Under the pieces are notes generated by a model, which was not told the origin of the DNA, ran no database searches, and saw only the letters and a program-made list of their open reading frames with translations. A stretch of DNA of 58,900 nucleotides, counting the filler, from Sphacelaria rigidula (Eukaryota), in assembly GCA_964200075.2 (NCBI GenBank). It is 7 parts of 7 records of this genome, joined end to end, with 100 filler letters (N's around TTAATTAATTAA, not from the genome) between each part and the next. Parts side by side here need not be neighbours in the genome. Positions count along the whole stretch, not along the records: positions 50,575 to 58,900 come from CAXNAA020011511.1; 6 more parts are not named here. One strand, written 5' to 3'. Numbering within the stretch: the first letter of the stretch is position 1; each line of letters opens with the position of its first letter. A program made the translations under genes and the position numbers. Positions 2,016 to 58,603 of the stretch are shown piece after piece.

Positions 2016-2949
2016 CCGCCTACGGCCGCAGATTTCAGCCCGGCTTGGCGTCTGACGGAACCTGATGAACCTGGGATTTATCCTGTTAGAAGTTTTTCAA
2101 CGCCCGTTTATGCCGTTGACCTTCAGTCCCCAGAGACTGGTATGACATGGGAGGACCTCGCCCTCTACCATTTTACGCCGATTTTGGTGGGTTAAAGCCC
2201 ACTGCCTCCGATTTTGTCGATTTCCGCACTTTGGGTACTCGCGCGAAGCTTTTCACAGAGACACCATCGGTCATCCGCCCAATCTCCGATAACACGCGCT
2301 CCCGGTCTGCCGCCCTCACCACGCCCCCTAGTGCCCCGCCGCCACCGATAACATCTACAGATGCACGAGCCACGCAGCACCGGTCCCACGGACCAGTAAG
2401 CAACGCTCCGCGAAAATTACTGGAACCTGCACCACGCGCCGCGAAGAATCTTCGCCACGCATTGCTACAACCCCGCCGCCCATAACGGCGCCGCCTACAG
2501 CTACCGCTCCCGAGCATGGAGCCGAGGACTCAGCTCCTGCTCCCGGGGCAGATATTGACGTCGGCATTCCTGCCCCGTCGCCCATTCCCCCGCTGCCTAC
2601 CCCACCATGTTTGGTCGCCTTTCCAGCGGAAGACCAACTACGCGAGTTTCTCGCCAGCTGCTCTCACCGTGATTGGGCCCGCGAACAAAACGCGGAACCA
2701 CTACGTCGCGCAGCCATCCAATACTTACAGTTTGACTGCCCAGTCCCTTTTCCACCCGCCATTCTGGCCCCGGTTGGCACACTGCCACCCCTAGATATCT
2801 CTGACGTATACGAACTCGTGCGTAAAGGCACCATTTTCACTACGGATGAAGGTGTACAACTACTCGTGCGTCGACCCACGCCTTTGACGGGCGCACTTTC
2901 CGTCTCGACTACGGGGCGCCACGCACGACTCCTCAATGACGAACCAACG

Positions 2950-4165
2950 CGCATTCATGTCCCATTATTAATGCACCCCTGGGTCATTAAAGGCTGCCAC
3001 ACGGACTTGTCATGTCACCTTGGCGTCACTCGCACCTTAGCGCTCTTAGAACACTCCTACTGGTGGGTTGGCATGGAAATTCCCACCCGCTTCTGGATTC
3101 GGCGGTGCTTCAAACGCCAACCTCGAAAAACTTCACGACAGACAGTACGCTGGCCCGTCATCTCTATGAGACACTCCAACGCTCCGGGCCACCTTGTGTG
3201 CATTGACTACTTTGGCCATCTACCGATCACAGGTCGCAGCAACACCTACATCTTACTCTTCACTTACCGCTTCAGCCGCCACGCGTCCATGTACGCGGTA
3301 AGCGCTGCAGATTTCACTGCCATAGGAACGACCGATATATTGGTCCACGATTACACTAAGCACTACGGTTGCCCGAAGCGACTCCTTTCAAACAGGGGTC
3401 GGCAATTTTGCTCAGATCTCTCTGATGAGCTTGACAAGCCCCTGGGCATCCGCAAAATTGCCACGAGCGCCTACCACCCTGACGGTAACGTTGGTACCGA
3501 AAGAGTTAGTCACACCAAGGCTCAGATACTCTCTATGGTTGTCAATGACCGCCAAAATGCCGAGGACCTACACCTGTCGCACATCATGTTGTCCTACAAC
3601 AACTCGGTTAACGCCGGCACAGGCTTTTTTCCGAACGAACTCCATCTTGAACGTTACCCTCGGCTCCCCATCGCCGTGTTTGAGCGACACACGTTCTATG
3701 GCCACCACGGATTGAATCAGGATCATATATGCTATCACCAGCTAGCGCATTCACGAGAACGCGAAGCGTTTACCCTCGTGCGCGAACAACACGCTATCAA
3801 TACCTCGCGTCTTGAGAGATCTAGCACTGCTCTCTACAACCTCATGCACAAGCGCCCCAACTGGAAAGTTGGTGGGTGGGTTTGGATCTACAATGGTTTA
3901 TCGACCATCCGCCAAGGCACCAGCAAGGAAGCCAACGAAACAATTTTGAAGACAAAATTGCCCCTCAATTGGACAGGGCCATTCAAGATCCTGACAGTCG
4001 GACCATCGCCATCATCACCGGATGTTAAACCCGTTGGTGACAAACTGCTCTATCTCGACCTGCCACTCGACCTCCAGGGCAAGGACACCAAACCCCGCGT
4101 CTCCGTGGTCCGATGCGAACTCTGCATGAACCCGCATGATACAAGCGACATGCCCAAGTACCTAT
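2950..4165 (+). pseudogene. Gypsy integrase (inactive)
   Basis: CH..SCHLGVTRTL..YWWVGM zinc-finger region with the second Cys lost, CIDYFG, SNRG (catalytic D replaced by N), SAYHPDGNVGTER, and GPF motif WTGPFKI. Confidence 0.92.
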
Positions 4166-4422
4166 TGGCGATGTCTTCGGAGAGCGTATTGGGAACAAGA
4201 ATCCGACCTTCAATAGCATCGCCGTGCAATCCTCCTGTACTGGACGCAATCCCAGCATCAGCATCTTGCTCACAACAAGAAATAATCCAATATCCGTCGT
4301 GGTGCAGCAGCCCGCGAACTTCACCGCCATCAAGGAGTACGCTTCGTCGCCGATGGCTACGAACTTGTACCCAACAAGCCCTGCAAGGCAAAGTTCTGCA
4401 AAGTTCTACGCAAAAACAACGA

Positions 4423-4623
4423 ATACTACCCAAGGGCAGCTACCTTTGGTTGAAAGGCAGCGACAACCCCTGGTGGTTGGGTCAGAACCACCTCGCTAAC
4501 GTGGTTTCTGCCGACACGTACATCGTGCGCTTCATCGATGACCCTGGACCCATCCAGCACAAGCTCCGACCAGCACGATACACCACTAGCTCATCTGCCC
4601 CACGCGGATTCTGGTGCTTTCAG
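4423..4623 (+). other. PWWP/Tudor-like (Royal family) module at the end of Gypsy Pol
   Basis: ILPKGSYLWLKGSDNPWWLGQ...TYIVRFIDDPG resembles the PWWP pattern G-x-x-V-W-x-K-x(3-4)-P-W-W-P...Y-x-V-x-F. Confidence 0.55.
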
Positions 4624-5603
4624 CGACTACTACGAGCCACCGGCCATCTACGACTACTGGAGCTCTACTACTCCGTTTTTGGCTGGCGCTCGATCTCATT
4701 GGATCATCGATTTCAGACTTTGATTCCCTTGCTTCCGACCAACATGCGTTGGTCGCTACTGATCTTGCTGCTTTTTTGTCTCTGGAATCCCCCAGGTGAA
4801 AGCTCTGCTTCCTGTTGTACCTCCCTGGTTTCCTCCTTCGTTTTGCTATGACGCCGAAGCAATTTGTGCTTCTTCGTTGATCGCTAGCACGCAGAAGCAG
4901 TTTGTGCTCCCGCGTTTCGAAGCAGTATTTTCTGCTCCTCGCGTATTTGCTTCCCTTATTTTGACGTGTTGGAGTGTGGGTACGGGAGTGCTTCGTTAGG
5001 TGTGCCTTATTAGCCGCTCATGACTCTATGAGGAAAGGAAAACCTCAATTAACGTTACTTTTGAGGATGAATCCTCGCAGCTGCAATTAAGGTTTATCTG
5101 GGTGGGTTAGTGTCATGAGGAGCATATTAGCCTGTTGTCATGCGGGCTCAGATCCGTTGACGGGCCTAGCTAGATTGCATGGCTTTCAGGTTACTTCAAG
5201 ACGGCAGATCTGTTCAGAGTTGGTCAGATACGAGTCAAGAAGAGACGGGATCCCCCCGCACCTCGATTTTCTAGGGGGAGCTGTGCGCAGCAATATAACA
5301 TGCCTGCCGGCACATGAGAAATTGCGTACATGCTCGTAACCTGCATGATGCGAGTCTCTCGAGAGATTGGTAATCGCCGAACGAGGACACACAAAGGACA
5401 CAGGCGAGGAGCTTCCTTTCTGTGGTTGCTTCTCTCTCTGGTGATATCGTCATCGACACGCGTGTACACCACATTCGTTCGGTGCACCTAGCCACAACTG
5501 CTTCACTGCTGCAGACGTTTGGGGGGAAATATGGTTTCGCCCTGTGTAACTGTTTCGTTGAACCTCATTTTAGAAATCAAACCCATTCTCCAGGATCCAC
5601 TGT

Positions 5604-5880
5604 AAATACTCTACTCAAATTTGGGGCAGATTGAATATGACCGCAAATACTCTACTCAAATATTGAGTAGTTCGAGTACGGCCTCAAACACTCTATTGAA
5701 TATTTTAGTAGGTCAAGTACGGCCTCAAATACTCTACTCAACTTTTGAGTAGTTCGAGTACGGCCTCAAAGACTCTACTCAAAAGTTGAGTAGATCGAGT
5801 ACGGCCTCCAATACTCTACTCAACCATCGAGTATGCACTCTCAGTAATACTTGAGTATAGAGTATATCGCTTGGGTATGA
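5604..5880. repeat. 41-bp tandem array with internal hairpin, block 1
   Basis: Unit AAATACTCTACTCAAnnnTTGAGTAGnTCGAGTACGGCCTC starts at 5604, 5645, 5686, 5727, 5768 and 5809. Confidence 0.95.
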
Positions 5881-6297
5881 TAAGCAACCGTGACCGTCGG
5901 CGACTTCGTGACGTCACTTCACAGACTATGTTGAATACATGAGCGAACGATGGCCATCAATTAGATGAGAGGCGGTACGTCACGGGCTCCAATGAGTATG
6001 AGCGAATGATGACCATAATAAAAAGAAAAACGCGTGCAGGTGAATGGGCCTACCTGCCCCAGCTCACCTGCTCCCACCCGTGGCAGTACATACTTGACAC
6101 CTCTCCATAACATGGCAGTACATACTTGATACCTCTCAATAACCCCTTCGATATCACTCTCAGTAGAAAGCACTACTCGTCATCATTGAGTAATCGAGTA
6201 GACGCGTTGTCGGCGGGTAGGTATTATCAAAATGAGCGACTGTATTGGCCGCACATGTGACTCCTTCATGGGAGAGTCGGCAATGGTACATCAGGTC

Positions 6298-6710
6298 CGG
6301 CCTCAGATACTCTACCTAAGTTTCGGGTAGATTGAGTATGACCTCAAATACTCCACCCAAATTTTGAGTAGGTCGAGTGCGGCGTAAAATATTCTACTCA
6401 AAATTTGAGTAGATCGAGTACGACTTCCAATACTCTACTCGAATATTGAGTATCCACTCTCAGTAATACTCGAGTATAGAGTATATTACTTGGGTATGAC
6501 CTCGAGACTCTACTCAAAGTTTGAGTAGATCGAGTACGGCGTCAAATATTCTACTCAAATTTTGAGTAGGTTGAGTACGGTCTCAAATATTCTACTCAAA
6601 TTTTGAGGAGGTTGAATACGGCCTCAAATACTCTACTCAAATTTTGAAAACTAAAAGTATGACCCTTCGAAAATACTGAGTATTGAGTATACTCTACTCG
6701 AGCTGCCCTG
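6298..6710. repeat. 41-bp tandem array with internal hairpin, block 2
   Basis: About 9 further units of the same repeat. Includes the variant spacer CACTCTCAGTAATACTyGAGTATAGAGTATA also found at the end of block 1. Confidence 0.95.
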
Positions 6711-13356: not shown

Positions 13357-13863
13357 TTATGTGTGTACATTGATTCCAAGACCGGAACAACAATGCGCAA
13401 CAAGGAAAGCTCAGGGAAGTTTCAACGGACATACAAAATCCTCAGTTAGTTGTTTCTGCAAAACGTTTCCCGAAAAAATGTGAATTTTCGAAATGGGTTT
13501 GAGCCCCATTCAATGTTCGATGTTCAGCCACATTTTCCCGGTGACCGATGTTTTTTTCTCCGCTAGACTTGCATTTTTTGCGGGGCACCGGTCATCAAAC
13601 TCGGAGGCCGGTCAAGTCCAGTGAAACTTCTGATGTTTCGCTGGACTTGGCCCATCTCCGAGAAAATGAGCGCTCTCCGAGAAAACCGCAAGTTTTGCAC
13701 ACTCTGGACGATGGACACAATAATATTCAATTGCTTCAGCAATAGACACAGGAGAAAACCTATCGATATATATATAATCGAACAAGATAGATGGTGAAAC
13801 ACATCTATTGATATGTATTGTAAGGGACAGTAGATGTTGCAATAGTCGATCGATATCCCATAA

Positions 13864-14214
13864 CGGGGGATTCTATAAAGTGAGGTTGATCAATGAAATG
13901 AGGTTTGAGGAGGCTAGCCAGAATGTGACAAAAACCCGAGGGAAGTACCGTCCGCAAGTGCCTTCGATCATTTTCGGGGAGAGGGGGGGGCGTACTCATT
14001 TGTTGCTTGCCTTAGTCGTTTGATTATTGACCTTTCGAGACGGGGCGTGGTTAATGGTCAAACGACTAAGGCAAGCAACAAATGAGTACGCCCCAACCCC
14101 CCGAAAATGATCGAAGGCACTTGCGGACGGTGCTTCCGTCGGGTTTTTGTCGCATTCTGGCTAGCCTCCTCGAACCTCATTTCATTGATCAACCCCACTC
14201 TATAGAACCCCCTG
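13864..14214. mobile_element. Near-perfect palindromic MITE, ~165-bp arms
   Basis: 13864-14030 is the reverse complement of 14050-14214. The same terminus (GATTCTATAAA.TGAGGTT.ATCAATGAAATGAGGTT) also occurs at ~8146-8190. Confidence 0.9.
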
Positions 14215-14269
14215 TTCTATGGCAGTTACAACAGATGAAGATCACTCGCTATCGATGGAAATCGTGCAC

Positions 14270-21500: not shown

Positions 21501-23240
21501 AGTACTGACTTGCGTCGTATCGACTCGTAGTGTCCCGTACCTAGCACACTATGATTACGCTGCGTACACCGCGAGACTTGGCATCAGAATTGCTACGCTT
21601 GTCGCTTCCAGGAAGAAATGCTGTCGGTGGTTGCCTCTAAGATCAACTTTTAGCCCGACTTTTATGCACTGGAATGTGGACTTGTACGAGTTGATGATTT
21701 CAGCAACAATATCACGTGATTTCCTCTCGCGGATTAAGTTTTCGGACCCCAGTCCGTTGGGCAATGTTTTTCGGCTATCTGTGAGGAAGCCAGATCAATT
21801 CTCCGATTCCCTAGACGTCGACTTTGTTATGTAACCTCTCCGAAAAAATCCAGGCACTCCACGATCTCGCCGCCGCGAGATTGACGGAGATGCCGTCGAG
21901 ATCCTAGAGTTGCCCGATTTTTGTCAGGAACGTGCCCGAAAGTCAACGTCGAGGGAATCGAATAATTGATCTGGCTTGCTCACAGCTAGTCGCAAAACAT
22001 TGCCCAACGGAGTGGGGTCCGAAAAAACAGTCCGCGTGAGTAAATCGCCTGATATTGTTGCTCAAATCGTGAATTCGTACAAATCTAGGTTCCGGTGCAT
22101 AAACATCGGTCTAACGATGCTCAAGATATAAAGTCGGGTTGTGCGATTGAAATGACCGGCTTGTGCTCTGTTCTCGCCCATGCAGGAGCTCCAAGTGGAG
22201 TTCTCAAACGCATGTCAGGCTTACGATGTCAGCATCGCACGAGGGCCAAGGGATACCGACGACAGACCGATCCCTGTCAGTGCTGCCTATGTTCGCCGCT
22301 TGTCGTTGGTGAACCGCCGAGCGAAGATCTTGCAAGAGGCGCCAGATTTAACGGACCTGGAAAATGACTTTCACGGCGCGTCGGACGCCAGCATGTGGGC
22401 GCGCACTTCTCTGGAGGCATTTTTGAAAGTGATTGCTGACGTCCCCGCTGAGGCCGTGGCGATAGTACAGTCATCTCGTCGTTTTGGGGCCCGGCAAATT
22501 TCACCTCTGCTCTTGCCTGCAGCTTCTGCGCCGTGGACTACCATGCAGGCACTACTTCGCCGTCTGCCACAAATGTTGGAAAAATGGTGGACGCGGGTGG
22601 CGAAGTCCAACACCCGTTCGACAGTGCGTGTGCGCACAACCGTTGGCGGGAGCGAACCGATGGCCAGGACGCTCCGTGGAGCGTGAAGCAGGTGCTCCGG
22701 TCGTCGGGGCATGGTGAAGGCTGGGACGGAGTTTGCGACGGTGGCAGCGGCGGTGGTTGGGGACCTACCCTTGACAACAGTGCCGACGATGTGCACCCCC
22801 CAGAGCCAGCCGAGCCGAAACGAAACGCCAGAGTGGAAGCCGATTAACGGCGCATCTTCGCCACGTTGATGGCGCGCTTCAAGGAGGAAGCAAACACCAT
22901 CATTAGTTCCGTATCACCGCCGGCAGAGGCGTTGTCGATCCAAACGCAAATGGTGGCATACCGGTTTACTCTGATCCATATGGCGAAGGGCGCACCCGGG
23001 CCAGGCAACCCGGCAAAGCCCCCACAAAAAGGTCGCCCGAAGGGATCGGGCAACGAACCTAAGTTGAGTACACGTGAGGTGGGCAGGGGTAAGGTGAAGG
23101 GCAGCGTCAAGGTCAAGGAGGAGAGAGCGTCCAATCCTCAGCAGCGGGGGGGCAATTCCAAGCGCACCAAACGCCACAGAGACTCGATGGAGACGCGAGG
23201 ATCCCGGCCCAGCAAGCGCTCGAAGACCTCCGTCCCATGA
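18590..23240 (+). pseudogene. Mutator-like (MULE/FAR1-type) transposase, intron-containing, disrupted
   Basis: FAR1-like KIECEHSG...HNH. D in QLDTT (19744-19746), D in LSDAD (20134-20136), CLWH, E in TKRTEG (20852-20854). SWIM finger CSC...GLPCRH (~22508-22552) and C-terminal KGRPK. GT-AG introns, e.g. exon 21380-21497. Stop at 19606-19608 and frameshifts. Confidence 0.93.
21650..22114. mobile_element. Palindromic MITE inserted in a MULE intron
   Basis: 21650-21870 is mirrored by 21885-22114, e.g. TTTTCGGACCCCA.TCCGTTGGGCAATGTTTT and its reverse complement. Confidence 0.9.
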
Positions 23241-52280: not shown

Positions 52281-52751
52281 GTCTGGAAGTGGTCGTGAGT
52301 CCAAGTAGGTCCAAGGTCTGTGTAATGATGCAGACATCACGCAACAGCGCAACACAACACCTACACACCCAGCCCCGAAAAAACACGAATGTGTGAGTGT
52401 ATCGGTATCACTTGTTTCTCACCCTAGCTTGCTAGATAGAACGACGCATGATTTCTCATTATGATCCTTTTCCATCGTAACAAAGGAAAAGAAAAAAGTA
52501 AATTGGAAGCACGGTACAAAGCAGAGGAATCTATGAAAGAAAAGGGAAGATAAAGGAGGGAAGACAAAAAAAGAGACTAAAGGAACAACCCGCTCTTCCT
52601 ACTCAAAACTATATAGATAAAAAAAATTGAACTATAAAACATGACAGCTGGAAACAAAAGTATGTTGAACTGCACACTCCTAAAGTACCGTGTTGAAGGG
52701 CTGACATACTACGCTTTGTCCCATCTAGTGCTATTCTCTGTTTTTTTCCAA

Positions 52752-52943
52752 TTACGCCACCAGCTTGCTCGTGACTGTCGGCGTTGCCGGCTCGCTCGAC
52801 TGTGCTAGCTGTTGGAGTACTCTTGGTGATAACCCCTCCCAGTCCCCGTCGTCGTATCTCACTCTCCAAAAACGCTCGCCGTAGTCGAACACTTTTCCCT
52901 CCTACCTGACCCCACCGAAATTTCTCCAGAGCGTGAAACCTAT
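52752..52943 (-). other. Tudor-like domain at the end of Gypsy Pol (not in the ORF track)
   Basis: Manual translation IGFTLWRNFGGVR*EGKVFDYGERFWRVRYDDGDWEGLSPR. It joins the upstream ORF (..LNLFP) through a 2-nt AT duplication. Confidence 0.75.
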
Positions 52944-53084
52944 ATGGGGAACAAGTTCAGGGGATCACTGCGCGGCAGGGGGGCATGGCGGATGCGCGGA
53001 AGGGACGGCGTACTTGATGTCTTGGCTGGGTGATAGAGGTGCCAAAGTGCGTGGAACTCGTCCAGTTGTAGGGATGTGAAGCTT

Positions 53085-53210
53085 CCAAGGACTTTGCTCT
53101 CCGGAAGCCACTCTGACGTCGCCCCCTCCTGAGTCCTCCCTTGGTACTCCCGACCTGCACTTCGTTTCCCGGGCTTGTACTCGCGGCGGTTCACTAGGGT
53201 AAGGAGGTGG
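53085..53210 (-). other. Chromodomain-like segment after integrase
   Basis: LLTLVNRR...REYQGRTQEGATSEWLPES follows the I...R....Y.v.w.G....tW.pE pattern, downstream of the GPW motif. Confidence 0.55.
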
Positions 53211-53399
53211 GGTGTGGAGTTAGAGGAAGATGATGTCTCAAAGTTCGGTCCATAGGCAAACAGGGCAAAGTCGTCAGCAATGTCGTGTCTCAAGTGCGGC
53301 GGCCGTACATGGTACGGTTTGACGTCAGACGGGGCTACTGTGCGAGTACGTAGGTTTTATCCTTGCATCACTGCCTCGAGACTGTGTCCAATCATCAGC

Positions 53400-54453
53400 C
53401 CCTTCTTCACCGTCCAAGGTCCCGTATACCTGTCATACTGCAGTTTCATGCCCCTGCCATCCCGGTATGTGGAACTTTCGCTGTCCCTCACCGTTACCAT
53501 ATCTCCTTCCGTGACCGACACGCCTGCTGATGGTCTCGAGATAGCGGCATTGCCTTTTCACGCGCCACTGCTTTTACCCCCTGCCTTTTGTCCAGCGCCA
53601 CCCTTTCCTCGGGGAGATTTTGTTTGCGCTGATCAACGAAGGCATCTAGCCCCTTGCTCGGTTCTGCTTCTTGTAAGAGGAAAACGAGGGAGTCTAGCGG
53701 TGTGCGCGGTTTGCGGCCGAACAGCAGCTCGAAAGAGGATATGTTCGAGGATAGCGATGTGTCCGGCAATGTGCGCTTGATCCACTGAGCGGGTGAGACA
53801 TACTCCTCCCACCTCTGGGGCCACAGCCTACATAGTTCCGACAGCATATCTAACAGCCATCCCCTGAGTCTCTCAACTGCTCCTTGACCACGTCGGTGAT
53901 CCGACGGCCCGAAAGCGATGTCCGCCTTCAACCACCTGCACAGATGCGTGACCACATCGGCCCTGAACTCTTTGCCCCTGTCGCAGCGGAGCTTTTGTGG
54001 GACACCAAAAGTTAAGCATAACTCTGCTAGGATGCATGCAATCTCGTCAGCTTCTTTTGATGGTAAAGGAAACCCGAACGGGAATCGGGAGCGGCGGTCA
54101 ACTACAAGCAAAATGTGCTTGTTGCGAGAGTGCGACATCACATCAATGGTTAGCAAGTCGATTTCCAACTCGTCCCATGGGTTTACAGTGCGTCCCGGTC
54201 TCATCGCCATTTGACGGCTAATTGCCTTCTTACGCCTTCTACCGCTGCACGGCAGCACATACTGCCTGGTATCACTCGTCATCGTAGGCCAATGGAAGCG
54301 GTCACGCATCAGAGCAAGGGTGGCGCCTACTCCAACATGTCCGTGGAATGTATGCACGAGTGCTAACAGGTCAGCTACCATCGTTTTCGGAACGGCTAGC
54401 ATCTCCTTGTTATCGACTCCTCGGTACCATACTCCATTAGCCGCAGGGCTCAC
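53400..54453 (-). pseudogene. Gypsy integrase
   Basis: VHTFHGHVG, RFHWPTM, LEIDLL, VVDRRSRF, LRCDRGKEF, QGAVER, FELLFGRKPR. Confidence 0.93.
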
Positions 54454-54539
54454 CTGTGCAGCTTGGGGCAGAGACCGCGGCTACAGAACAACCTTATGAG
54501 TGCCGAACAGTTAGTGATCAACGTGAACCTCCTACCGGC

Positions 54540-55620
54540 TCAGTACGGCCCATAGTGCTGGACACCCCACAGGACAGCTATGCACTCTCGTGCCATGGGC
54601 GCTCTGCACGAATCGTTACGAGGAAACCGGTGACTGCCGAATGATGCGATGCGTGTTTTGCGCCCCACTGGCTGCAGGAGCACCGCTCCAGCACCCACCT
54701 CGCTTGCGTCTGTCTGCAGTACAAAAGAGTTGTTAGGACCGGGGAAGGCTGGTGCCTTCGGCGAGGACAAGGCTGCTTTGAGGGCTTGAAACGCCTCCCC
54801 CTGCTTAGTATTCCACGGTATGGACAGCTTTCGCGCCCGCTTGGGTGCGAAATCTTTTCTGCGGAACAGGTCGGTTAGTGGGGCGGCTACTAGGCTGCTT
54901 TTCTCAACGAACTGGCGCAGGTACCCTGTAAGGCCGAGGAAAGTTTTCCTCGACGGTGGATGGTCTAGGCTACCCGGCGATGGCGGCGAGCTTGTATGGC
55001 GTGGAATGAAGGCCACTGCTATCTACCAGCATGCCCAGAAACTCTAGCAACGCCGATGCAAAAATGGACTTGGCGAAGTTCACCGAGAATCCCGCGACTA
55101 GTAAGCGTTGTAACACGATCACGAGTGGAGCTAGATGCTCGTCCCATGATGTGGCCGCGATAAGGATATCGTCAAGCCAGGTGAACACCCTATCCAACTG
55201 TTCCACCGTACCTTTTACCCGAGGGGTGAAAGCGACGGGTAGAACTGTTAGACCAAAGCCTACCCGTGTGAGCTCGTAAAGGAGACCATCTGCATCCCGG
55301 GACGCCGTTTTGAAGCGGTCTTTCTCAGCGATCTCAATATGGTGGAAACCGGAGGCAAGGTCGAGTTGATGGAGTAACGCTTAACTTTGAGATCGTCGAA
55401 AATTGATTGCGCATCCCCAAAACCCCCGCTATCCGACTCAGAGTCTATTCAGTTCACGCCAATCAATGCACAAGCGCAAGGTGCCGTCTTTTTTCTTCAC
55501 GCATAGGCATTGGGCTATCCACCGGGAGGTCGAGGGTCGGGTGATCCCTCGATCGAGATGCTTGTGTATCTCTTCGCGAATCGTGTGACGCTCCAGGGAA
55601 AATCGGCGTTGCTTTGCTGC
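54540..55620 (-). pseudogene. Gypsy RT-RNase H
   Basis: RT motifs with WLDD, FLGLTGYLRQFV, LQTDASEVGAGAVL. Frameshifted. Confidence 0.93.
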
Positions 55621-56370
55621 GAATGGCGTACGCGACTCGTCAGTGAGGGAGAGTTCTAGCTGACCGTTGATACAGGCGGGAACCCGCTTGGGGTCCGTGG
55701 GGAATAGTCCAGCTTCGATCAAGCTCAGCAGCGTGTCTACCAGCTCCCTCTTTTCCGCTCCTCCTAGCTGGTCTTTATTTGCGTCCGTCACGCTGATCTT
55801 GGGGTTTGGTTGGGTCGAGCAACTACTGTCTGGACGCGGGGTGCGGGGTGGGATTTCCACGGGGGGATCTACCGTAGATGGATGTGGACCCAACAGTGTG
55901 TGGAACCTGGCGGGGTCACGTACGTTCAGTGCTATCATACGCGCGACCGTACCAGTAGGCTTCACTGCTATCTGCTCCTTACTTCTATTTACAAGTCCAC
56001 AGTACACCGGCGACTCCGGCTGCGAGCACGAGAATCCCTTCGCGATCCCCACTTCTGCCCCTTCGTCCAGATCAAGCTTCGCCTGGGGTAGTTCGAGCAC
56101 GAGCTGGCTATCCTGTGGTTGACGCCCGATCGCGGCTGTTTTTACCGCGGCGCTGACGAAGCCGCCGAGCGTGATCGTTTGTCCGACCAAGCTTAGCTTC
56201 CACTCCAGGGTGCTGTCGTCTTCCCAGGCAACATCGCGGTGACTGGGATAGTCGTAGATGAACGGAAGAGCGGGCGCAGCTAGGGAAGAAGTGATCTCCG
56301 TCGTGGTGTTCGGAGCTACTAGTATATCTTGAATGTGGTGGGTAGGGTTTTCGTTCGTCAGGAACGGGAT

Positions 56371-56712
56371 CTACGGTGCCGCTGGCGAGGGGTGGAACCC
56401 TTTTCGTGGAGCGAAATCTAGACTACTGTTATTGTACCGGAAATAATAGGCACCTAGGATGAAGCCGTACGGAAGGCCCTCCACTACTCGTACGGTTATG
56501 TTACGGACCCGTGAGTCGGAGGCCAAAAGCACGGGCACATTTACGGAACCGACTATGCGCATCGGGGGGAACTTACTCTGGGACGGGTTCGCTGCACAGA
56601 GAACACCTGCTGCCTTATGGTTGAGCGTATCGTCCAAGATGTTGGCCTTGCGCAAGCTGCGCCACAACGCTCCTGACATATAGTTGCCATCTCCCGCTCC
56701 AGTGTCCAGCAA
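56371..56712 (-). pseudogene. Retropepsin-type aspartic protease
   Basis: LDTGA...FILG. Confidence 0.85.
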
Positions 56713-57827
56713 GACTTCTGTCGGCCACGACCGACGGAGACGCCGTCGGTGCTATATCTCGCCCGTCACCCAAAGTTGGCTCCCGCGACGCTGGAGGGTT
56801 ATGGTGTCGCTGGGCCGGCGTAGGTGCCCCAGGTCGATTGTACCTGGGGCGCGTCTTCACGCGCTAGCTTGAGTGTGGCTAGCGTCGGCCTCGCTCGCGG
56901 ATGCGCCCAGTATATCCTCGACGTCGTCGTTGTGGTCTTCGCCGATGAGACCCTGTAAATTGCTGCCAGGTATTGCGCCTCGGTGAGCGCGGCTAGCCGG
57001 CGTTGGGGAATGGCCGCCTTGTGGCGGGCCGTTCAGCCGCTGTAGTGTACGGCCGGGATGATGCCGTGCGTCCACGGACAAGGAGTGTTGCCCCGGTGAC
57101 CACACGAGCCAACGAACGCGTAACCGAAGCAAATTTTGCGATCACGCAAGAAGGTGACCAATGCGTCGTGTCCCGCCGCAATCGGGGGTATGGATGGCTC
57201 AGAAATCGAGGTCGGTCCGGCTGGCTGGGTGGATGCAGCGGCGGGTGCTGGTAGCGGGGAAGCGCTTCCAGACGGCGATGCCGGGAGTCTGGGCTGCAAG
57301 TCTACCGCGCGGGGTGCGGCGGGATGACCCGGAGCCGCGTCGCGAGGGCCGGGGTTGGTGGGCGTCGAACCTTGCTGCACGAAGGGCACGCCGTGTAAGC
57401 CCGGTAAGGCCACCAGTTGATTGTTGAACGCCGCGACGGAAGGTTCTGCCGTGTGGCGGTCGGCTGACGCCTGGGGTCGAGCAGACATAGCGGGGGCTGA
57501 CAGGGTAGGCGGCATTTCGGGGGAAGTAGAGGATCCCGGGTTGGTTTGCTTGAGTATTGCGGCGACCTTCGCGGGCGATTGTATCAAGTTTATGACGTCC
57601 TCAAGCAGAAATAATCAGTCAGGTCCCGCGCTGCGGTTGGCATCACGCATCATTGGAAAGAACACAGGCCGCACCAGCAGGATGCGGACGCCGGTTGGTC
57701 GAGGCGCTGGGGTTGTGAGGCGTCAGGAGCAGCGGCTGGAGCTAAGGTACAAGGTTTAGAATCTAATCAGCTAGCAAAGGCAAGCGAACGGGTACTTTAA
57801 CGGATCACGGGCGGTCGACCATACCCT

Positions 57828-58600
57828 GTGTACGTAGGACCAAGCGCGGGGGAACTATCAGTTGCCAGCAGCGCCGTCGTGCTGCAACACCGGATGTGGT
57901 CGACGCTGCGTGTGATGGACCAGAGAGTCTTGAAAATGCCGGAGGATGAACACGTCAACGGTAGGCGGGTGACACAGACAGATAGGTGCTCCGCCCACCG
58001 TCGCAAACTCCTAGTCGAGCTCCTGGCAGAAACCAGTGGAACGTTCACATCTCTAACTTCAGCTGAGCGAGTAAACGTTCACCACATCACGGGCGAAACC
58101 GATACTGTCCCACACGAGTCCGTCATTGTGGCCGACCGGCTATGGATTCTCGTCCGGGCGGAAGTGATGACGAACGGTGCCACCAATTCTATGCATGCTG
58201 CTCTCGACTCCATCACTCTATCACCCAACGAGTCGTGGAGTGCGGCAGCGGAACGAGTGTTGTTAGCATTTCGCGCGAGCCTAGCAAACGCGGACCGGCC
58301 GTATAGTACCGAGGCCACGTATTTCTGGCGATTCATCTCCACCCTGCAGCTAAGTGAGCTCCACAATCGTACTATCAAGGTCGATCTACCTAACCAGGTT
58401 GATCGGCTAGGCCTCATGCCAATCCTTCATGAAAAGACGCACGTAGTCTGGGCCAGGTCGAAGCCTTCGAGGAGTGAGTGGCACAGTCCAATAGAACTAG
58501 CAATGCAGAGGCGGGGAGAAGTAGCGAAGAGTCTGTACCAGGACCTCATTCGTATCATGACCGCCCGTAACCTAGCATGGCGCGACCATAGCCACGCACG
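57828..58600 (+). CDS. Unknown ORF, possibly Gag capsid-like, opposite to the adjacent Gypsy element
   Basis: Uninterrupted ~260 codons, apparently helical. LDSITLSPNESWSAAAER resembles the Gag major-homology-region pattern. Confidence 0.4.
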
Positions 58601-58603
58601 CAT

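Follow-up and report, generated by a model that had tools for sequence, protein, structure and literature searches.

A Tudor domain preceded by a probable chromo-fold domain at the integrase C-terminus of a decayed Ty3/Gypsy element from Sphacelaria rigidula

The integrase of a Ty3/Gypsy retrotransposon family found in Sphacelaria rigidula appears to end in three small barrels encoded in one frame, namely a GPY/SH3 module, a chromo-fold domain and a PF21743 Tudor domain. The explanation that we favour as a whole, and hold at slightly better than even chances, is that the sequence studied here is the decayed 3' end of pol from a family of the Gypsy-10_Ec32 lineage whose three-barrel tail would tether the integration complex to nucleosomes. 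The evidence for this reading, and for the alternatives to it, is set out below.

Results

The window holds a dead copy of a Ty3/Gypsy element

The window, that is the whole stretch of 58,900 nucleotides analysed, consists of seven unlinked contigs of about 8.3 kb each with N spacers between them. The element with the chromo-Tudor tail lies on contig C11511 of the source genome (G000) and is laid out as follows.

52530..52754, minus strand: stop codon, then the beginning of the 3' untranslated region (comparison with sister copies)
52803..52972, minus strand: Tudor domain, PF21743 (PTM/DIR17-like), with an N-terminal helix, broken here (Pfam; model residues 155-214)
52973..53032, minus strand: variable Pro/Ser-rich linker, spacer between chromo-shaped domain and Tudor (low column conservation, higher pN)
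53033..53212, minus strand: predicted chromo-shaped domain, three strands and a C-terminal helix, methyl-lysine cage apparently absent (model)
53336..53437, minus strand: GPY/F (SH3-like) integrase module with an in-frame stop at 53357-53359 (weak SH3_Tf2-1 matches in relatives; profile of the Tudor-lineage tail alignment, A2, against the C-terminal region of Ty3 Gag-Pol, E=0.001)
53911..54393, minus strand: integrase zinc finger (H2C2; PF17921, E=1.5e-11) and catalytic core (rve; PF00665, E=1.9e-8)
54420..56793, minus strand: protease region, reverse transcriptase and RNase H, spread over several interrupted frames (RVT_1 and RT_RNaseH matches)
57660..58601, plus strand: gag-region segment, inverted relative to sister copies (opposite to the rest of the element in 7 of 7 covering sister loci)

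The window peptide is the C-terminal end of a Ty3/Gypsy integrase, broken in this copy, as the preliminary description had proposed from a peptide read across a 2-nt slip. This peptide is encoded on the minus strand; its chromo-side frame stops at the 2-nt frameshift, at about 52943-52945, and the Tudor frame runs from there to the stop at 52752-52754 with one in-frame stop inside (52902-52904). Neither break was found in any of the 19 sister loci, and both therefore arose in the window copy. This copy is dead: besides additional stops and frameshifts, about 755 nt of the sister copies are absent at 54428/54429, in the interval between RNase H and integrase, the gag region is inverted and, as similarity to the sister copies stops near 52530, the 3' LTR is missing as well. 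The pol pieces upstream of the tail (RT, RNase H, integrase) keep the Gypsy order; those at 54420..56793 are 55-60% identical to P0206 (CAB1110846.1 of Ectocarpus, 55-63% over the window's pol pieces).

The sister loci show an LTR of about 428 bp with TG..CA ends, a primer site and a purine tract, and at one locus (L114) two LTRs share 97% identity over 298 nt; the truncated window copy has no such LTRs. Arithmetic on the lengths of two copies gives about 11.05 kb for the family, which is a Ty3/Gypsy LTR retrotransposon (Metaviridae) with the pol order protease-RT-RNase H-integrase. A host gene as the identity of the tail was ruled out by the Gypsy context and the many copies. No tRNA gene was found in the window. 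At L111 (G000:C1886:1-10000), two Tudor-family copies are apparently arranged in tandem around one LTR, with a further copy on the same contig.

The Tudor domain is fused in frame to the integrase

The Tudor piece of the window, with X at the stop, matched PF21743 (PTM_DIR17_Tudor) with E=7.4e-6 and 26.1 bits, just below the curated cut-off of 27.2 bits. The uninterrupted sister copies L009 and L014 scored 32-37 bits, above this cut-off, and L015, which carries a 3-residue deletion, scored 20.6 bits, below it. Judged by these scores, the match of the window piece exceeds chance. In an AlphaFold model of the L014 tail built with 69 alignment rows (mean pLDDT 81.8, pTM 0.50), residues 155-214 best matched SH3/Tudor barrels (SMN with Z 5.1, SETDB1, LBR and RDM15), with unrelated barrels interspersed. 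A sequence search of the Tudor part against PDB chains gave nothing meaningful. The Tudor identity put forward earlier is borne out by the Pfam match, the sister copies and the modelled barrels.

This domain is widespread. The tail (222 residues) matches 462 representatives at E<=0.001, of which 156 reach E<=1e-10; PF21743 is found at E<=1 in 40 of the 69 aligned homologue rows and, in G000, its cut-off was passed by 76 of 150 scored candidates. The element Tudor and host-like PF21743 repeats match each other by hhalign (97%, E=1.3e-11) and form one family. The host-like proteins P0129, P0152 and P0108 contain five to eight PF21743 Tudor repeats together with helicase-associated (HA) domains or a type III pantothenate-kinase-like region. 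They are a possible donor family for the element Tudor.

Continuity of the fusion in intact copies had been named as a check, and it was followed in sister loci (the DNA search scored 40 of 119 candidates and gave 41 matches; 20 loci retrieved). The frame is uninterrupted from the GPY module to the Tudor in 6 of 19 sister loci, the chromo-like domain and the Tudor share one frame in 10 of 19 (leaving out L002, a false call), and the frame across the site of the window's frameshift is intact in 16 of 19. Of eight database homologues, seven contain the Tudor segment and have GPY, chromo and Tudor in one uninterrupted frame, as do the whole pol proteins P0010, P0019 and P0206. Sequencing error as the source of the fusion was ruled out, since the domains are in frame in sister copies and in other species.

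By eye, the Tudor lineage divides into three subfamilies, which take in 24 of the 24 loci with a listed frame among 30 retrieved. Between subfamilies (11 frames), uncorrected pS was 0.62-0.99, that is saturated, and pN was well below it in the chromo-like block (0.29-0.46) and in the Tudor (0.17-0.43). The linker (pN 0.34-0.69) had the highest pN of the three regions in nearly all pairs, and mean column conservation was 0.32 in the linker, 0.57 in the chromo-like domain and 0.53 in the Tudor. These values indicate purifying selection on the GPY-chromo-Tudor fusion.

A predicted chromo-shaped domain precedes the Tudor

The claim of a chromo-like domain upstream of the Tudor holds for the predicted fold. 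In the model, residues 78-134 form three strands and a helix, with pLDDT 87-93 over most of the domain. Comparison of the model with 48,161 chains gave 17 at Z>=5 and none at Z>=8; residues 72-137 best matched chromodomains with Z 5.3-6.0 (Oxpecker, Chd1, SUV39H1, Chp1 and HP1), including 7vrf (Oxpecker; Z 6.0, rmsd 2.8, 59 aligned), 3mts (Z 5.8) and 3g7l (Z 5.5, rmsd 2.1). Foldseek with the three-domain model found no PDB match at E<=0.001; the best was the SETDB1 triple Tudor with an rmsd above 18, and one viral match besides was uninformative.

At the sequence level, the chromo-like part had no Pfam match in the window piece, the sister copies or the homologues, Chromo was absent among 25 of the 27 Pfam families listed for the 69 alignment members, and an Atlas search with this part gave no usable match. 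Its profile against 20 Pfam-positive chromodomain stretches of G000 yielded an hhalign E of 0.29 with a reversed control at 0.21, and that of the Tribonema-type relatives yielded 0.033 with a control at 0.10. The chromo-like profiles of the Tudor lineage and of a second Gypsy lineage, at 4423 in the window, did not match each other (E 0.39; 0.14). Because the domain stands after GPY/F, the site of chromodomains in other Gypsy elements, we consider a chromo fold likely for it on the strength of the model. A Trp of this domain is conserved in 57 of 60 rows and substituted in the window copy. A third repeated family of G000 (L064-L080) has a Pfam-positive chromodomain; it is RT-bearing in L129 and L130 and stands far from both lineages.

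With a register inferred from the chromo-box given in the available part of PMC3350952 and the 6mha range, the equivalents of the cage residues Y24, W45 and Y48 (positions 76, 101 and 104) are aromatic in 0 of 56 rows, 56% of 66 rows and 0 of 66 rows, respectively; position 101 is Thr in the window's family. Read in this register, the chromo-shaped domain would be without a methyl-lysine aromatic cage.

The Tudor keeps a candidate acidic pocket

The Tudor of Arabidopsis RDM15 (PDB 7de9), an H3K4me1 reader, has the same barrel as the modelled element Tudor (Z 4.9, rmsd 2.7, 53 aligned, 26% identity). The available part of PMC8184781 reports that RDM15 binds H3K4me1 via W616, Y623, Y641, D643 and D645, and that E647 reads H3R2. 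Mapped by motif spacing and aligned range, Y193/D195/D197/E199 of the element have the spacing of RDM15 Y641/D643/D645/E647. Over 32 rows, the W616 equivalent is F in 23, the Y641 equivalent is kept in 27, and the acidic residues D195, D197 and E199 occur in 31, 25 and 28, respectively; the Tyr and the three acidic residues are therefore equally spaced in both proteins and the first cage aromatic is mostly retained.

The aromatic cage that had been suggested for this Tudor stands only in part: positions 172 and 193 are mostly aromatic, whereas position 177, the Y623 equivalent, is mostly not (aromatic in 7 of 32 and 12 of 61 rows). The same position is aromatic in 14 of 16 host-like PF21743 repeats, which were collected with a search pattern that fixed the other two cage positions. 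The in-frame stop of the window copy falls at the Y623 equivalent, which is non-aromatic in the window's family. Besides mostly lacking Y623, the element Tudor, known here from sequence and model, differs from RDM15 by its N-terminal helix and by additional conserved aromatics off the cage positions (model residues 182, 188 and 198). From the aligned residues, both the Tudor and the chromo domain lack a full aromatic cage, with an RDM15-like acidic pocket kept in the Tudor.

A second Gypsy lineage ends in a barrel shared with distant relatives

The second element spans positions 2332-4851 of the window, on contig C11505 of G000. As the contigs are unlinked, it is not a neighbour of the element on C11511, and physical linkage of the two was ruled out. 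Two of its features were delimited.

4160..4230, plus strand: chromodomain remnant; about 170-180 nt of the sister copies are absent just upstream
4423..4620, plus strand: terminal Tudor-like barrel, here called barrel B (alignment, domain profiles, model)

The two elements had been assigned to distinct Gypsy lineages, and RT phylogeny agrees: in a tree of 22 rows (one alignment piece per locus, every row kept, midpoint root, study sequences alone) they fall in separate groups with 100/100 support. In the unrooted tree, two proteins with three barrels lie between these lineages, with 93/90, short of full support, for joining the Tudor lineage. Of 25 lineage-B loci, 7 have the motifs of GPY, chromo and barrel in a single frame, and the terminal barrel has at least 150 matches in G000 (150 scored of 776 candidates). 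The chromodomain of this lineage has some sequence support (hhalign E 3.8e-4 with a control at 0.44; Pfam E 0.099 in P0197).

Barrel B had been described as PWWP-like, a label that the analysis did not support. It has no Pfam match at E<=10, and no Pro-Trp-Trp-Pro occurs in its alignment (A3); matches to the PHF19 Tudor are weak (E 0.76). In a low-confidence model (mean pLDDT 46.9) the best barrel matches are Tudor-type, with Z up to 4.5, and one PWWP reaches Z 3.9. The Atlas search gave 0.91 for its best, unnamed match and 0.82-0.85 for Tudor/Agenet clusters, which we take as leads. PWWP was therefore rejected as a firm label, and the modelled domain at 4423 would be Tudor-like rather than demonstrably PWWP.

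When 21 domain pairs were compared by hhalign, only two exceeded 1.3%: the Tudor pair, and barrel B with the third domain of Tribonema-type relatives (94%, E=9.5e-8). The 94% was obtained with domain-cut alignments, whereas the whole alignments A2 and A3 matched weakly (4.5%). This third barrel follows the chromo-like domain and the Tudor in seven distant relatives (P0088, P0111, P0114, P0117/P0201, P0146/P0203, P0159 and P0163). P0163 is 72% identical to P0151 of T. minus, the gene model of which stops before the third barrel. In P0084, residues ~230-271, upstream of the integrase zinc finger, resemble barrel B by eye, with a negligible HMM score.

The family very probably belongs to the Gypsy-10_Ec32 lineage

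We take the domain model cd20401 to be that of the PTM-like Tudor. According to the available part of PMC12477816, Ectocarpus has four Gypsy lineages, three with chromodomains, and Gypsy-10_Ec32 (Repbase Gypsy-10_ES), which has a homologue in Tribonema minus, carries a C-terminal Tudor (cd20401); according to the authors, no TE with a Tudor had been reported before, and they infer that readers were captured repeatedly. The Tudor fusion was already published there. Named relatives of the window's family come from Ectocarpus sp. CCAP 1310/34, Nemacystus, Cladosiphon and Tribonema minus (KAG5187172.1, P0151), the same spread as in that part of PMC12477816.

Compared by description, the family very probably belongs to the Gypsy-10_Ec32 lineage. 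Both have a C-terminal Tudor on pol and relatives in Ectocarpus and T. minus, and in neither do gag and pol form one clean frame. The 11,528 bp of Gypsy-10_Ec32 are close to the length of our family, as is the length of Gypsy-4_Ec32, whereas the LTR of Gypsy-10_Ec32, at 636 bp, differs from the ~428 bp of our family (PMC12477816, available part). The text, annotation table and legends of that source mention neither a chromodomain nor a third barrel for this lineage. A chromo-Tudor tandem was not found in the published literature searched; Fig. 1C, Fig. S1B and the FASTA supplements of PMC12477816 could bear on the point. Chromo and PHD fusions to TEs are described in 10.1101/2021.11.30.470311, in the available part of which no Tudor-TE fusion was found; the available parts of PMC11541908 and 10.64898/2025.12.07.692804 do not mention Tudor, and the search of literature on the PTM Tudor found nothing relevant.

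Chromoviruses and other chromodomain Gypsy elements (MAGGY, plant group II, Chronos, ECR-1) resemble the window's family in having a chromo-shaped domain after GPY/F. As far as the available parts of the sources state, plant group II chromodomains lack cage residues, like the chromo domain of the window's family (PMC3350952), whereas the ECR-1 chromodomain keeps all three (PMC11541908). Compared with chromoviruses, the chromo domain of the window's family is far more diverged, has no Pfam match, lacks the Lys-Trp of the chromo-box and is followed by a Tudor.

Discussion

A flexible tail that tethers the integration complex to nucleosomes, and so biases where new copies land, is the function towards which we lean with fair confidence. 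The Tudor would be the likelier nucleosome contact. It would act by a pocket in which two aromatic and three acidic residues have the RDM15 spacing, and which would favour a basic residue that is unmodified or mono-methylated over a tri-methyl mark; the chromo fold, lacking a cage, may be an accessory contact to protein or nucleic acid. As given in the available parts of the sources, the chromodomain of MAGGY directs its integration to chromatin marked by H3K9me (PMC3350952), and in brown algae a chromodomain alone is no predictor of centromere targeting (10.64898/2025.12.07.692804). Against our explanation stand the second Tudor cage aromatic, which is mostly missing, the fold matches, which stay below Z 8, and the chromo profile, which scored no better than its control.

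With the fusion real, the barrels might instead recognise nucleic acid or some host protein other than a histone, as SH3-fold integrase tails can, and not histone marks, the candidate partners being target DNA, element RNA or cDNA, or a transcription or import factor. The lack of a complete aromatic cage in either domain, the conserved Tudor aromatics off the cage positions and the KOW, CarD and other non-reader barrels that score equal to Tudor domains are in its favour, but the Tudor clearly belongs to the host-like repeat family and its pocket is acidic, which would disfavour direct DNA binding at that site; overall we regard such binding, the main rival to tethering, as rather unlikely. 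It appears very improbable that the Tudor segment or the chromo-like one is carried along without a function or resembles such a domain by chance. The window copy is indeed broken in many places and the chromo-like segment has no sequence-level match, but the Pfam cut-off is passed in sister copies, the 156 representatives found at the stricter threshold share the region, and purifying selection is apparent relative to the linker; for the Tudor, this reading is already largely refuted.

The preliminary description had proposed that the two Gypsy lineages independently gained a second methyl-mark reader, possibly in adaptation to chromatin without PRC2/H3K27me3. Its statement on brown-algal chromatin agrees with the available part of PMC13076208, which reports that H3K27 methylation is absent in five brown algae. 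The separate and fully supported RT groups, and the presence of a chromo-shaped domain with a second barrel in both lineages (in one frame in part of the lineage-B loci), also fit this proposal. However, barrel B is homologous to the third domain found in relatives of the Tudor lineage itself (19 of the 20 other domain pairs reached at most 1.2%), so that the claim of each lineage having added its own second reader lacks support, as does the idea that such separate gains were an adaptation to the loss of PRC2. In addition, chromo and Tudor are present together in Tribonema minus, outside the brown algae, the cages are incomplete, and neither domain has a link to H3K79me or another mark. We therefore judge the proposal improbable. 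The chromo-Tudor pair is older than the brown algae, which by itself neither excludes nor supports an adaptive history; EED/SUZ12 are also missing in close ochrophyte relatives, and PRC2 loss may predate the brown algae (PMC13076208, available part). Given the homology of barrel B with the Tribonema-type third domain, losses from a shared ancestor that had three barrels, or an exchange of modules, would account for the origin of these tails as well as separate gains would.

Returning to the tethering tail that we prefer, a broader and tentative extension would be that ochrophyte Gypsy integrases carry modular arrays of two to three Royal-family barrels that read nucleosomes multivalently and set family-specific insertion sites. 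Such arrays might combine chromo with Tudor, chromo with barrel B, or chromo with Tudor and barrel B, barrel B being perhaps an undescribed Tudor-like family, and might act through cage-degenerate pockets in genomes without H3K27 methylation and with little H3K9 methylation. We think this possible, though doubtful in its entirety.

Since a Tudor on a brown-algal Gypsy integrase and reader capture in stramenopiles were published in 2025, neither is new here. What is added is a probably overlooked chromo-fold domain, with which the tail would be a module of tandem domains, a third barrel, as yet unclassified, common to distant lineages, and the incomplete cages with a retained RDM15-like acidic pocket. 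The kind of element itself is published, and the tandem fold and the third barrel extend it modestly. If the tail reads chromatin, its domains would be natural probes of the marks that guide retrotransposons in algae without H3K27 methylation.

Some further observations concern the relatives and the rest of the window. Inserts that by eye resemble C5 cytosine-methyltransferase domains occur in P0019 and P0021, in the RNase H-integrase interval, and in P0203, at the N-terminus; they are degenerate in P0019 and P0021, with no Pfam match listed for any of these inserts. We take the PC and ENV motifs in the P0203 insert to be those of a C5 cytosine-methyltransferase. Elsewhere in the window lie a 41-nt tandem array (5567-6705) and several inverted-repeat (MITE-like) elements, for example at 13862-14216 and 21650-22114.
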